This document shows, piece by piece, positions 13,775 to 42,122 of a stretch of 42,122 bases of DNA; position 1 is the first letter of the stretch, and every line of letters starts with the position of its first letter. The DNA lies in IMG/VR virus record IMGVR_UViG_2778261299_000011; one strand, given 5' to 3'. This stretch comes from a virus. Taxonomy: Duplodnaviria; Heunggongvirae; Uroviricota; Caudoviricetes. The position numbers and the translations under genes are program-made. Under the pieces are notes generated by a model. That model was not told where the DNA came from, made no database searches, and saw only the letters and a list, made by a program, of their open reading frames with translations.

Positions 13775-13941
13775 TTGACCAAAATCGAAGTTACGAACAA
13801 GGAAGTGTCGAGCGAGCTTTAACGTGCGCTAACTGCGGTCAGAAGCTGCATGTGCTGGAAGTTCACGTGTGTGAGCACTGCTGCGCAGAACTGATGAGCG
13901 ATCCGAATAGCTCGATGCACGAGGAAGAAGACGATGGCTAA
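13771..13941 (+). CDS. ninF: NinF (GTG start)
   Basis: Hand-translated [56 protein letters not shown]; overlaps ninE stop and ninG start. Confidence 0.55.
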
Positions 13942-38142: not shown

Positions 38143-38960
38143 TGGCAAAAAATGACTTTAAAGCATTCGCAACGGGTAAAAATGCCAATGTTATGTCGCA
38201 GGAGGAATGGGAAGCGTTGCCTGCGCTTTTATCCGGATTTACAGCAGGGAAAGCATCCAGTGCGCAAGTCAATAAGGTTATTCGGCAGGCCAGCTTTATT
38301 GCTGCAGCTCTGGCCCAGTTTGTAAGTGACAAAACGCAACGGGATGTGCTTGATAATGGTGATCTGCCCGGTTTTGTTGAATTGCTGGGATCGGGGTTTG
38401 CTGTTGAATACCTGAGCCGCAAGAATCCGTTTGGTGATATCAAATCGGATGGCACGGTGAAAACGGCTCTCGAAAACCTTGGTTTGGGAGAAGGCTCAGC
38501 ATTACCTGTTGGGGTGCCTGTTCCGTGGCCTTCAGCCACTCCGCCAACAGGCTGGTTGAAATGCAATGGTGCGGCTTTTTCTGCTGAAGAATATCCCAAA
38601 CTGGCAAAGGTTTATCCGACAAATAAATTGCCTGATTTACGTGGTGAGTTTATTCGTGGCTGGGATGATGGGCGTGGTATTGATGCTGGGCGTGCTTTAT
38701 TGAGCCTTCAGGCTGGAATGCTGGAAAAACACCGCCATATGGTTGTAGCCAACGATGGGTATGATTCAAAAGAGGAATGGGAACTGGCGGCAATCTTCAG
38801 AAAAGCATATACGCAAGGCCGGGGGCTTGATGCTGCCGATGCCGGAGGGACTCTGATTCCATCACCAACGCTACATACACGAGGGAGTATTGGTAACACA
38901 GGTGGGAGAGAAACCCGTCCACGAAATATTGCATTTAACTATATCGTGAGAGCTGCGTAA
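38142..38960 (+). CDS. Tail fibre protein, variable C-terminus within an invertible segment
   Basis: Start ATG overlaps previous stop (ATGA); crossover repeat at 38479-38493 lies inside the gene. Confidence 0.75.
38479..38493 (+). repeat. Left inversion crossover site (inverted repeat partner of 40357-40371)
   Basis: TTGGTTTGGGAGAAG with flanking AAACC; exact reverse complement at 40357-40371; AAACC...GGTTT core resembles Gin/Pin crossover sites. Confidence 0.6.
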
Positions 38961-39562
38961 TGGATAAAGCCGTATTAAATAGCGAACTTATTGCCACGAA
39001 GGCGGGGAATATTACCGTCTATAACTATGATGGTGAAACACGGGAATATATTTCTGAATCAACTGAATATCTTGCTGTTGGCGTCGGTATTCCCGCACAT
39101 TCGTGTTTAGATGCTCCTGGTTCATATAAGTCAGGTTATGTGTCCTGTCGAACTCTGGATTTGAGATCATGGGAATATGTGCCAGACCATCGCGGTGAAA
39201 TCGTCTATAACACCGAAACGGGGGACTCAAAAGAAATCACAGTGCCGGGAGATTACCCTGAAAAGACAACCACTATTGCTCCGTTAACACCATACGATAA
39301 GTGGGATGGTGAGAAATGGGTGACGGATACCAAAGCGCAACATAACGCAGCAGTGGAAGGGGCTGAACTGCAACGCCAGTCACTGATTGATGATGCCATG
39401 TCTTCCATTGTTCTGATTCAACTAAAATTGCAGGCCGGGCGGAAGCTGACGCAGGCAGAAACCACCCGACTTAACGCTGTGCTGGATTACATTGACGCGG
39501 TGACGGCAACAGATTCCAGCACCGCGCCGGATGTCATCTGGCCTGAACTGCCGGAGGCGTAG
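38960..39562 (+). CDS. tfa: Tail fibre assembly protein (Tfa)
   Basis: C-terminal SSTAPDVIWPELP motif characteristic of Tfa chaperones. Confidence 0.8.
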   Translation: MDKAVLNSELIATKAGNITVYNYDGETREYISESTEYLAVGVGIPAHSCLDAPGSYKSGYVSCRTLDLRSWEYVPDHRGEIVYNTETGDSKEITVPGDYPEKTTTIAPLTPYDKWDGEKWVTDTKAQHNAAVEGAELQRQSLIDDAMSSIVLIQLKLQAGRKLTQAETTRLNAVLDYIDAVTATDSSTAPDVIWPELPEA

Positions 39563-39977
39563 GCCATTCAATATCTGGCGCACTGGAGGTATCAACCAGT
39601 TCCAGTGCGTCCAGATAATCCAGCCACAAATTATATTGCGCCAGTTCGTCACCTTTCAGACGACCAATAGCGGCTTTACCGGGCCATTGCTTACTGTTCA
39701 TGTATTCGTTGGCCTGGTTAATTAGTAGCTGTCTTTCTGATTCAGTAATTTCAATAAGCTCTTCATGAGTAGGTGGAGGAATATCTGCCCACGCAGGCAG
39801 CCCATCATCTCCGGCAATACGGATTTTTCCTTGTGGCGGTTCAGCCATAAACTCACTGATAATATTTTGATTTACTTCCTTAGCGTCTGATAAATCCCAT
39901 CCCTCTGATTTATATTTATCAATCATATCCACAGGAAAAAAAGCATTATGCCTTGCGCTATAAACATATTCGTTCAT
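39534..39977 (-). CDS. Alternative tail fibre assembly protein (Tfa'), convergent
   Basis: C-terminal TSSAPDIEWPTPP motif; start MNEYVYSA with AGGGTG SD; 3' ends of the two tfa genes overlap. Confidence 0.75.
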   Translation of the reverse strand: MNEYVYSARHNAFFPVDMIDKYKSEGWDLSDAKEVNQNIISEFMAEPPQGKIRIAGDDGLPAWADIPPPTHEELIEITESERQLLINQANEYMNSKQWPGKAAIGRLKGDELAQYNLWLDYLDALELVDTSSAPDIEWPTPPAVQAR

Positions 39978-39997
39978 ATAAATCACCCTGAATAAAA

Positions 39998-40371
39998 TTA
40001 CTCACCAACAGCCCACCAACTGTAATTCATCGATACCGTGTCGCTGGTTGATGACGTTCTGTAAGCAGAATTAAAGCCGGTTAACGTTGGGCCTTCTGCA
40101 GTCATCACGAACCCTCGCCCAGCGCCTAAAGGCGCACCGCCATCACCAGAATGAGTAAGCATGGCGCAGTCCGCTTTTTTGGGGAAAGGGATGCTGAATG
40201 TAATTCTCATTGTTTGCGTCGATAATGTCGGCGTAACCGCACCACGACCATATTGCAGGATTTTCCCGTTGGGTAATTTCATCCATCCATCACCACTGGC
40301 AAAAGAGGCCATGTCCGGTATCTGATTTCCCCCTGTCCCCACATCCCGTTTTGCCGCTTCTCCCAAACCAA
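39998..40371 (-). CDS. Alternative tail-fibre C-terminal segment (promoterless until inverted)
   Basis: Minus-strand ORF bounded upstream by the inverted crossover repeat; would fuse to the constant fibre N-terminus after inversion. Confidence 0.55.
40357..40371 (-). repeat. Right inversion crossover site
   Basis: Exact reverse complement of 38479-38493. Confidence 0.6.
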
Positions 40372-40437
40372 CGTTTATGAAAATGCAGAAATAATGAGCA
40401 AATGGCATCATTCCTGCTTTTGTCAGGGGGATCTACC

Positions 40438-40548
40438 ATGCTTATTGGCTATGTACGCGTGTCAACAAATGACCAGAACACAGATCTACAACGTAATGCA
40501 CTGAACTGTGCAGGATGCGAGCTGATTTTTGAAGACAAGATAAGTAGT
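40438..40548 (+). pseudogene. Truncated Gin/Pin-family serine DNA invertase (first ~37 codons only)
   Basis: MLIGYVRVSTNDQNTDLQRNALNCAGCELIFEDK matches the conserved N-terminus with catalytic Ser; similarity stops near 40546 where composition turns AT-rich. Confidence 0.7.
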
Positions 40549-40551
40549 GCT

Positions 40552-41142
40552 ATGGGGGTTAGGCATTATAATTGGTTGTTAAAAATCAATAAGTTTTGTA
40601 TTGTTGTGATGATATTACCATCATGTTACAAGGTGTGGATTTTGGCGAAGTTACTATATGTAAAACCTATAACGATAAAAAAAGCAAATGAATTTGTTTC
40701 TATTTATCATCGACACCATCGACCAACGTCAAGGAATTCGGGCAGATGGGCTATAGCTGCCTACCACATAGATTCTGATGAATTGGTTGGTGTAGCGATA
40801 GTTGGAAATCCCGTATCTGCAACGTACATGGATGGTGTGACGGCAGAGATTACACGATTATGTGTCAGTGACAAATCTCCAAAAGGAACTTGCTCCTTTC
40901 TGATTAGTCGATGTAGCACAATCTGGAAAATGATGGGAGGAGAAAAAATTATTACCTATACTCTAAGCAGTGAAACAGGCGCATCTTTAAAAGGTGCTGG
41001 GTGGCAGTTAGTTGGGACTGTACATCCTCATAATCGTTGGGCCGATAAAGCAAAGCAGGATGGAATAATTAGGGATAATTTAGAAATATATAAACTGAAG
41101 AAATTTCGTTGGGAATGTTTACTCGGGGAGGTTCTAATATGA
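40552..41142 (+). CDS. Hypothetical protein in AT-rich cassette (start uncertain; in frame with invertase remnant)
   Basis: Open frame continuing from the invertase remnant; contains HRHHRP His cluster; no family recognised; stop overlaps next ATG (ATGA). Confidence 0.45.
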   Translation: MGVRHYNWLLKINKFCIVVMILPSCYKVWILAKLLYVKPITIKKANEFVSIYHRHHRPTSRNSGRWAIAAYHIDSDELVGVAIVGNPVSATYMDGVTAEITRLCVSDKSPKGTCSFLISRCSTIWKMMGGEKIITYTLSSETGASLKGAGWQLVGTVHPHNRWADKAKQDGIIRDNLEIYKLKKFRWECLLGEVLI

Positions 41143-42122
41143 GAGTTATGGCAGCGTTTAGCTCTGATTCCAGAGAACAATATAAAGCTGATATATTCAA
41201 GGTGTTAAGTTTGCCAAAAGGTGATGTCATTCATTTTAGATACAAAAAGAAATATGTTGAGGCTTGCATTTATCAACAACGGCAAGCGATAGTTGGTAGT
41301 GATGTATTCATTTATTTTTCGCAAGGAAATACAATGAATGAAAATAAAAAATTGATCCATAAATCAATTAGGAAGGCGAAAATAATTTCGTTTGACTGGA
41401 GTGATATGACCGAACTTTATCATGTTCGGATGATTCTTGGGGATTTTATTAATGCTGAAATTTGTAATCAGGGAGATGATGGGCTTTTCTTAAAATATAT
41501 AGAATGTAACGATTCTGATTATTATAGCAACTGGAAAAGTAGGGTGGAAGAAGTTAGGTGCGCATTTCCTGATATGATGTTTTTTTCTATTGATGGTATC
41601 CTTGACTCTCTAGGAAGAAGAGTTATTCCGAAATACAACCCTCAAAGTAAAGGGTGTTTCTATGAAGTATATCATGGTGATAGGTACACTATAAATATAA
41701 AAGTAGCGAATCTTGATGGAGCTTCTAAAAAATTACTTATAAATTGTAGTCCTGATGATGTTGTGATTGCACATTGTAATCCTATAGAATCATCTGTTGA
41801 TTATGATGATATTTATATTCCACTTAATATCAAAACGTTGCCTTTTTTTAAACACTCAAACTTTTTATCATATAAAGTAATTAATGTAGAAAGTGACGGC
41901 ACTAGTGGGAATTCTAATGGTGAAATTAAAGGGGGTGGGGTGGGTAAAAATGTTGACTTTGATATGTATACAGTGGCACAAGAACTATGTCTGAGACTTA
42001 ATTTAAAAAGTGCTATTATGTTTGGATTGTTATGTTTGATGGCTTTTTTGGCAATGGTATTCGTTAGTGATAAAAATACAATGATTGTTTGGCCCTATAT
42101 TAAAATAGGTATGTCGGCTATT
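41139..42122 (+). CDS. Hypothetical protein, at least 328 aa, C-terminal hydrophobic segment; 3' end beyond window
   Basis: Hand-translated frame open from ATG 41139 to window end (absent from ORF track, which has no downstream stop); hydrophobic stretch AIMFGLLCLMAFLAMVFV. Confidence 0.6.
   Translation, partial: MRVMAAFSSDSREQYKADIFKVLSLPKGDVIHFRYKKKYVEACIYQQRQAIVGSDVFIYFSQGNTMNENKKLIHKSIRKAKIISFDWSDMTELYHVRMILGDFINAEICNQGDDGLFLKYIECNDSDYYSNWKSRVEEVRCAFPDMMFFSIDGILDSLGRRVIPKYNPQSKGCFYEVYHGDRYTINIKVANLDGASKKLLINCSPDDVVIAHCNPIESSVDYDDIYIPLNIKTLPFFKHSNFLSYKVINVESDGTSGNSNGEIKGGGVGKNVDFDMYTVAQELCLRLNLKSAIMFGLLCLMAFLAMVFVSDKNTMIVWPYIKIGMSAI

Follow-up and report, generated by a model that had tools for sequence, protein, structure and literature searches.

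Putative mobile cassette pairing a Mom-like GNAT gene with the gene of a predicted membrane-anchored PUA-like protein at the invertase position of an Escherichia coli prophage

What has taken the place of a tail-fiber invertase whose gene breaks off after a few dozen codons? The question arises at positions 40438 to 42122 of the Caudoviricetes record IMGVR_UViG_2778261299_000011 (42,122 nucleotides, the whole of which we call the window), where the start of a Pin/Gin-type serine invertase gene gives way to AT-rich sequence with two overlapping open reading frames, ORF1 and ORF2. E. coli WAT served as the reference locus for the downstream layout (L001; window coordinate = L001 coordinate + 28299). 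It is firmly supported that the two genes form a mobile, obligately paired, and coevolving operon carried as prophage cargo. ORF1 is a Mom-like GNAT and ORF2 a predicted membrane-anchored protein with PUA-like and Ig-like domains, arranged as follows.

40642-41142, plus strand: ORF1, XF1762-family Mom-like GNAT, 166 amino acids, TTG start, TGA stop at 41140-41142
41139-41576, plus strand: predicted PUA-like beta-barrel domain at the N terminus of ORF2, amino acids 1-146, holding most of the invariant residues
41577-41894, plus strand: predicted Ig-like/PapD-like beta-sandwich domain of ORF2, amino acids 147-252
41895-42002, plus strand: predicted disordered, length-variable linker of ORF2 (amino acids 253-278) and pre-membrane strand with the invariant E282
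42003-42122, plus strand: predicted membrane hairpin of ORF2, comprising transmembrane helix 1 (amino acids 289-310) and the start of transmembrane helix 2 (amino acids 318-341), where the window end cuts the gene

A scan for ORF1 over one genome per species returned 79 loci, among which a tight clade was defined by an ORF1 score of at least 275 bits. All 12 loci of this clade carried an ORF2 homolog on the same strand, 0-33 nt downstream, in Enterobacter, Polaribacter, Teredinibacter, Desulfoluna, Myroides, Stutzerimonas, Luteimonas, Hyphococcus, Arenibacter, Pseudomonas, Pedobacter, and a Desulfobacteraceae metagenome-assembled genome; the groups that hold the pair are Gammaproteobacteria, Alphaproteobacteria, Desulfobacterota, and Bacteroidota. 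An ORF2 homolog stood beside none of the ~60 lower-scoring ORF1 homologs. Loci reached from the opposite direction, through a search with ORF2 (Vibrio, Klebsiella oxytoca, Serratia, Morganella, a short assembled contig, and an element resembling an integrative and conjugative element, or ICE), always had a Mom-like gene preceding ORF2, and the enterobacterial and Pseudomonas loci among them also belong to the group with an ORF1 score of at least 275 bits. In 17 distinct pairs, pairwise ORF1 identity was correlated with pairwise ORF2 identity (Mantel r 0.84, a value reached by 0 of 5000 permutations), with ORF1 evolving slowly (mean identity 66%) and ORF2 fast (37%); within the tight clade, ORF1 identity was 56-83% across four phyla, identical E. 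coli copies excepted. With the same junction present in six E. coli genomes and the gene pair recurring in many other taxa, the two frames are not a chance pair. We also considered and rejected a conserved third gene: a Fic protein, phrog_32975, and HNH proteins lie upstream at some loci only and belong to different families, and were taken as neighbors.

The form of the Mom-like gene itself varies at two of these loci. On the PM2-like (Vinavirales) Vibrio phage 10N.286.55.F1_PE001 it appears as two coding sequences, apparently split by a frameshift, next to an intact ORF2 homolog (L003, 12047-12542). On the ICE-like metagenomic contig (L013, 6557-7975) the gene before the ORF2 homolog encodes 472 amino acids, with the Mom-like domain at residues 105-269 and additional N- and C-terminal regions on either side.

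Where the invertase sequence ends was settled against the intact pinE of e14 (an intact pinE has 555 nt), a comparison that an earlier note on this DNA, made by a model from the letters alone, had proposed. Nucleotide identity of 98% extends to 40544 and stops there, in search and alignment alike, and Pfam Resolvase covers only amino acids 3-38 of the translation (28.2 bits). What is left of the invertase is 36 residues from the ATG at 40438 to ...FEDKIS, lacking the complete resolvase catalytic domain and the C-terminal helix-turn-helix (HTH) required of serine invertases such as Pin, Gin, and Hin. GC content changes from ~0.46-0.52 in the tail genes to 0.28-0.45 downstream of the breakpoint. 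The note's account of an invertase match ending abruptly near 40546, with its body replaced by unrelated AT-rich sequence, was borne out on both counts. Around the breakpoint the window divides into three parts.

40438-40544, plus strand: remnant of a Pin/Gin-type serine invertase, 36 codons, including the catalytic-serine motif YVRVST
40545-40574, no strand: junction filler between the invertase breakpoint and the conserved cassette, with nothing similar among the sequences examined (pinE and the cassettes of other taxa)
40575-40641, plus strand: the cassette's own upstream region, conserved with K. oxytoca (L004) and the viral contigs L103 and L105

Similarity to the K. oxytoca cassette and to those on the viral contigs L103 and L105, the latter a P2-like phage, spans L001 12276 (window 40575) to 13873-13910, that is, from 67 nt 5' of ORF1 through the ORF2 stop codon and a GC-rich hairpin that overlaps it. 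Judged by this shared span, the mobile unit is probably a two-gene operon of ~1.64 kb, running from window position 40575 to ~50-90 nt beyond the window end. A Shine-Dalgarno-like AAGGTG at 40630-40635 lies ahead of the TTG at 40642, and a scan for sigma-70 promoters performed no better than on shuffled sequence (12 sites versus 10.4 expected). The whole ~1.8-kb stretch, with the same cassette and the same junction, was found in 6 of 5426 complete E. coli genomes. We read the locus as a horizontally acquired AT-rich cassette that has replaced most of the tail-fiber invertase gene.

Extension in the 3' direction, also proposed in the earlier note, yielded the complete ORF2 and, past it, a prophage arm and torT. 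In E. coli WAT and LH10-b-1, the two loci inspected, the cassette lies directly upstream of torT, and beyond the window end a 127-bp element (L001 14025-14151) adjoins torT. The element is 92-96% identical to sequence by ybhB-bioA, the classical lambda attachment region, and the genomes that have it there carry prophage genes beside it (tail-fiber assembly, nle effector cargo). At the K-12 torT locus, which is without this prophage, the upstream-of-torT sequence begins near L001 14207. By these comparisons the element is probably a lambda-type attachment (att) arm, and because the arm and then torT come after the cassette, we place the cassette inside the prophage. The note's other suggestion, host DNA beyond a deleted prophage end, is ruled out by the same arm between cassette and torT. 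A prophage with this arm at torT occurs in 198 genomes, and the genes just inside the arm vary among torT prophages (one has a diguanylate cyclase gene, another has unrelated hypothetical genes); the cassette therefore sits at the right end of the prophage, in a slot whose cargo varies.

Prophages at two distinct integration sites, torT and ybhB/bioA, seem to have one att arm in common. A sensor-domain diguanylate cyclase gene is found just inside the arm both at torT (L099, 4210-5541) and by ybhB/bioA (L096, 2210-3541), and a further torT prophage has a gene for a glycine-rich-domain protein in this place (L100, 5064-5882).

Neither frame had resembled a recognizable protein in the earlier note, a statement that fails for ORF1. 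It matches the NCBIfam model NF045478 (XF1762) with 168.9 bits against a cutoff of 50, over profile positions 2-143 of 143, as well as PHROG 1384, "Mom-like DNA modification protein," at 1.7e-38; the Pfam Mom family PF25680 gives 24.8 bits (E 2e-5, profile 2-133 of 202), below its gathering threshold of 27.1. The note had also described the invertase frame as staying open to 41142, and while the end is correct (TGA at 41140-41142), the long frame is a chimera. The corresponding RefSeq protein WP_000905006.1 (234 amino acids, named XF1762 family protein) starts at the invertase ATG and would join 36 codons of the invertase, through a spacer of 32 codons, in frame to the native 166-amino-acid protein. 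We place the native start at the TTG at 40642 because homologs have 160-166 amino acids and begin MAK...; K. oxytoca uses GTG at the equivalent position. The chimeric gene model of WP_000905006.1 calls for correction.

The invariant H23, R72, and S85 of ORF1 align with H58, R111, and S124 of phage Mu Mom in two independent, weak alignments (hhalign and a broader hidden Markov model). Mu Mom is a Gly-tRNA-dependent N6-adenine carbamoylmethyl transferase in which R111 and S124 are essential and H58A drastically lowers activity, and in which an HTH-like insertion (residues ~175-209) and R151 are required for momylation (PMC13219725). Between its last two core strands ORF1 has ~23 amino acids where Mom has ~43, as counted by eye in a region that the alignments no longer reach. 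The ORF1 family is strongly basic, with a mean net charge of ~+10. PDB sequence searches with ORF1 and its profile returned chance matches or none and did not recover Mom itself, and PADLOC-DB v2 gave no ORF1 match beyond a spurious SduA (E 0.005). We infer that ORF1 is a nucleic-acid-directed acyl or aminoacyl transferase.

ORF2 starts at 41139 in an ATGA overlap with ORF1 and runs beyond the window end, just as the earlier note had it; in full it has 344 amino acids (E. coli WAT, L001 12840-13874), and its last 17 codons lie outside the window. An AlphaFold2 model built from 28 homologs (predicted local distance difference test, pLDDT, 85.9) places in order an alpha/beta N-domain, a beta-sandwich, a disordered linker, a conserved strand, and two C-terminal helices. 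Residues 253-271 have a pLDDT below 50, and the linker region is gap-rich in the homolog alignment. The helices at 289-310 and 318-341 fall in the same C-terminal region as that covered by a hydrophobicity scan across homologs, confirming the hydrophobic segment that the note had described, and the very end of the protein, read from L001, is a near-invariant ...FYFFNKK. A signal peptide is absent and basic residues stand at both ends of the hairpin, which suggests from the sequence that the bulk of ORF2 is cytoplasmic. These features uphold the picture of two translationally coupled proteins, the first small and soluble (ORF1, 166 amino acids) and the second larger and anchored in the membrane (ORF2, through its C-terminal hairpin).

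The ORF2 N-domain has a PUA-like beta-barrel at the level of fold, and its invariant residues are S8, S9, D10, R12, Y15, D18, H32, R34, Y35, R78, H95, and W132. Checked for the EVE/YTH modified-base readers, which are recognized by sequence membership and an aromatic pocket that binds the base, it has conserved aromatic and basic residues and no Pfam, NCBIfam, or PDB sequence match. As modeled, the domain is PUA-like and would be either a modified-base reader or a member of the protein-binding Lon-N branch. No model in Pfam, NCBIfam, or PADLOC v2 matches ORF2, a PDB sequence search with the N-domain profile gave chance matches or none, and PHROG 30351 (function not known) matches the protein end to end. 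Against 1.84 billion representative proteins the ORF2 profile recovered 467 clusters, and nearly all of the best 150 of these have 320-360 amino acids (~335) and the same layout. A metagenomic member of 868 amino acids (P0243) has a polytopic membrane region of ~500 residues after the hairpin, either a real fusion or a gene-calling artifact; Pfam matched none of the longer ORF2 relatives, the polytopic region of P0243 included.

What, then, might the pair do? Our leading candidate, held tentatively and at somewhat under an even chance, is a lysogen-carried anti-phage module acting by abortive infection or exclusion and composed of a base-modifying writer and a membrane reader or effector; in proposing it, we infer an enzymatic activity, a ligand for the PUA-like domain, an effect at the membrane, and an anti-phage phenotype. 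The operon has inserted into the right-end cargo slot of a prophage integrated at torT and removed the invertase gene but for 36 codons. ORF1, as a minimal, strongly basic GNAT of the Mom family, would acylate or aminoacylate a base of a nucleic acid in the manner of Mu Mom, which draws on Gly-tRNA and modifies N6 of adenine. The translationally coupled ORF2 would present its PUA-like and Ig-like domains to the cytoplasm, tethered to the inner membrane by the C-terminal two-helix hairpin. While the GNAT installs or uses a Mom-type modification, the PUA-like pocket of ORF2 might recognize a nucleotide (modified or unmodified), a nucleic acid, or a partner protein, and ORF2 would act at the membrane. 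We favor this anti-phage reading because of the cargo-slot position, the chromosomal islets, and the defense-type neighbors of the pair; because a membrane hairpin is typical of abortive-infection effectors; because one partner evolves slowly and the other fast; and because there are precedents both for infection being aborted by PUA-like or membrane proteins on sensing modified adenine nucleotides and for GNAT-EVE proteins in prophages.

In Metis type II (MisC-MisB) and PUA-Cal-HAD, a sensor of a modified adenine mononucleotide triggers abortive infection, with MisC a membrane effector that has a cytoplasmic ligand pocket and the PUA-Cal-HAD sensor a PUA-like domain (10.1101/2025.11.05.686725; 10.64898/2026.01.15.699771). 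The cassette resembles them in its two-gene, phage-conflict logic, a functional analogy only. It is without sequence similarity to either and without a HAD phosphatase, Calcineurin-CE, or MisC-like match, and neither of its proteins qualifies as a member, for which a MisB/HAD phosphatase together with MisC or PUA-Calcineurin-CE is needed. MisC, unlike ORF2, lacks PUA and Ig domains and is predicted to cross the membrane with three helices, and the mark used in those systems is that of the host Dam, whereas the cassette would supply its own writer.

The (PIN-)GNAT-EVE proteins, found in prophages and defense islands and predicted to act on a nucleic-acid base or aminoacyl-tRNA, likewise associate a GNAT with a PUA-superfamily domain on proteobacterial prophages (PMC7641849). 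There, however, a single soluble fused protein has ASCH and AAA_17 partners; the cassette has separate genes, its GNAT is of the Mom/XF1762 type, and its PUA-like protein is predicted to be membrane-anchored and to have an Ig-like domain. Fusions of Mom to restriction endonucleases (REase), described as "momylation" restriction-modification-like systems of jumbo phages (PMC7824862), also join a Mom-family writer to a second conflict component, but the partner in the cassette is not a nuclease, and the conserved pair is without an REase or HNH domain.

A more specific version of the anti-phage reading, which we regard as unlikely in this exact form, is that ORF1 stamps the resident genome with a private hypermodified adenine that ORF2 detects before collapsing membrane integrity. 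ORF2 would then respond to the modified nucleotide freed as a phage degrades host DNA, or to unmarked incoming DNA at the membrane. If true, such a mark-and-sense scheme would be a Metis-like logic equipped with its own writer, and a case of tRNA-dependent DNA chemistry serving immunity.

Several findings weigh against an anti-phage module of this kind. Foldseek ranks the protein-binding Lon-N above EVE for the ORF2 N-domain, the domain is about neutral in charge, more in line with a pocket for a small ligand or a protein than with bulk DNA binding, and fusions of this domain to nucleases or other effectors were absent from the best 150 of the 467 clusters. Given the shorter counterpart of the HTH-like insertion, ORF1 therefore need not act on DNA. 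No system protein model among the known and candidate defense systems of PADLOC-DB v2 is genuinely matched by ORF1 or ORF2. A distant ORF2 relative, P0268, has no recognizable Mom-like neighbor, and remote ORF2 branches may use other partners. The defense-type neighbors are examples, anecdotal rather than a statistical enrichment, and a position between genes R/S and V on a P2-like phage suits a late-expressed, DNA-protecting modification. The earlier note's proposal of a defense or abortive-infection module stands as a reasonable leading hypothesis, supported by the att/int cargo slots and by GajA and other defense-type genes that occasionally stand nearby, and it is contested by Mom-type anti-restriction and by the P2-like late slot.

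That main competing explanation, possible though in our view doubtful, is that the pair carries out a Mom-type hypermodification of phage (and host) DNA late in lytic growth, letting progeny DNA resist restriction. ORF2 would then be an accessory subunit, either a regulator tethered to the membrane that keeps a toxic enzyme in check or a factor for specificity or targeting. Mu offers the closest parallel. ORF1 belongs to the same broad GNAT-type family, is strongly basic like Mom, and keeps the aligned catalytic residues, all of them invariant; in Mu, moreover, mom comes directly after the gin invertase gene at the right end, a placement matched by that of the cassette. Yet Mom has 241 amino acids to the 166 of ORF1 (75 residues shorter), the counterpart of the insertion essential for momylation is shorter by ~20 residues, no com-like regulator is present in the cassette, and Mu Mom works without a membrane partner, whereas ORF1 is obligately paired with one that Mu lacks.

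Genomic positions divide in a similar manner. The majority of loci are on prophages or integrative elements, and contig L105, that of a P2-like phage, has the pair between the tail-completion genes R/S and the baseplate gene V in late-gene orientation. In K. oxytoca and Serratia, however, it lies between icd and int, and there between attL and int, outside any late operon, and several loci are tiny islets of the two genes flanked by housekeeping genes, or stand beside Gabija or other defense genes, with phage genes not in view. Among 2.9 million viral contigs just 7 have the pair, most of them at a contig end.

Mom expression is toxic, and a tightly coupled, coevolving gene pair on mobile elements could be an addiction module, in which the GNAT would be a toxin with DNA or, like TacT and AtaT, aminoacyl-tRNA as its target, and ORF2 would neutralize it; the element would be stabilized in this way, and the pair would need no dedicated anti-phage role. 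Charged tRNA is the target of known GNAT toxins, and Gly-tRNA is what Mom itself uses (PMC13219725); the split ORF1 next to an intact ORF2 in the Vibrio prophage is what a costly ORF1 would lead one to expect. We nonetheless consider a toxin-antitoxin role quite improbable. Known GNAT pairs such as TacAT and AtaRT combine an acetyl-CoA-dependent toxin with a small ribbon-helix-helix (RHH) or HTH antitoxin encoded upstream, and such an antitoxin is absent here; the partner is instead a 344-amino-acid, three-domain membrane protein whose many invariant polar residues make it over-built for an antitoxin, and PADLOC and Pfam give no toxin-antitoxin model match.

Serotype-conversion genes are often near tail-fiber genes and att, and a membrane-recruited, tRNA-dependent GNAT might, in the way of FemX and MprF, aminoacylate a lipid or cell-wall precursor and so change the cell surface, with lysogenic conversion or receptor masking as the outcome. 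ORF2 membrane anchoring and a basic GNAT from an aminoacyl-tRNA-using family would fit such an envelope modification, which we hold to be very improbable: the bulk of ORF2 is predicted to be cytoplasmic, with a two-helix hairpin only and without a signal peptide, flippase, or polytopic transferase domain, and neither protein has similarity to the FemX, MprF, Oac, or Gtr families. That the cassette is nonfunctional, a flanking stretch of host DNA or decaying junk with accidental frames, might be suspected from the truncated invertase and the rarity of the cassette in E. coli, but is excluded by the lambda-type arm that precedes torT and by two intact frames with invariant residues that are paired across four phyla and coevolve.

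Both families were already listed, XF1762 in NCBIfam and both in PHROGs, and the concepts of Mom fused to restriction nucleases (PMC7824862) and GNAT fused to EVE (PMC7641849) are known; what is new is the obligate coupling of a Mom-like protein with a membrane-anchored PUA-like one. Our literature search found no paper on XF1762 and no description of such a pair. Mom chemistry was resolved only in 2026 and has until now been tied to one stand-alone anti-restriction enzyme, and a tightly conserved Mom-like clade that always has a membrane PUA-like partner implies a second biological use of this chemistry. Were the pair a defense system, it would link acylation of DNA, RNA, or tRNA to membrane-level immunity and extend the idea of modified nucleotides as danger signals; were it counter-defense, it would be a two-component variant of momylation.

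The surroundings of the pair vary between taxa. An integrase or excisionase gene adjoins it in Enterobacter, Desulfoluna, Vibrio (where it stands beside int of the PM2-like prophage), Klebsiella, and Serratia, and in Morganella it is at the end of a P2/HP1-like prophage; other genes of mobile elements nearby are an IS1595 transposase (L022) and an ImmA/HTH pair (L016). The defense-type neighbors comprise Gabija GajA, the PDC-S04 Fic protein, restriction-like HNH proteins, an REase-like DUF4365 protein, and a GHKL ATPase. In Teredinibacter (L017, 7402-9801) a full-length GajA homolog (E 9e-274) lies ~830 nt downstream of the pair. The short contig L012 and the Pseudomonas genome locus L024 share an identical pair, and in both a Fic gene (PADLOC candidate PDC-S04) and a gene for a 318-334-amino-acid phrog_32975 protein are directly upstream in the same orientation (L024, 3168-4967; L012, 403-2202); by their arrangement these could be a separate system or part of an extended four-gene island.

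Upstream of the cassette, the end of the window is a prophage tail-fiber region with a tail-fiber gene (38124-38960) followed by an assembly gene (38960-39562), which are faced by an inverted alternative set on the minus strand (39534-39986 and 39998-40411). Two repeats bound the invertible segment, the left one within the tail-fiber gene.

38474-38493, no strand: left crossover site, a pix/gix-like inverted repeat of 20 nt, 95% complementary to 40357-40376
40357-40376, no strand: right crossover site of the invertible segment, partner arm CTTCTCCCAAACCAACGTTT

Both crossover repeats of the segment (38474-40376) are intact next to an invertase of only 36 codons. With the invertase cut to this length, host-range switching would therefore need an invertase supplied in trans. 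In an e14-like element (L094, 4751-5524), the gene of a LEM-3-like GIY-YIG nuclease lies directly downstream of an intact pinE, at the slot that mcrA holds in K-12 e14; this is a further case of cargo turnover beside the invertase. The cassette differs from the pinE-mcrA type of slot in that its insertion removed the invertase body rather than sitting beside it. Three of the six genomes with the cassette (H4-H6) match the window from 40357 onward, the very first position of the right repeat (query position 58), and upstream of it they carry tail-fiber genes that differ from those of the window. This suggests that recombination took place at this repeat after the cassette had arrived.

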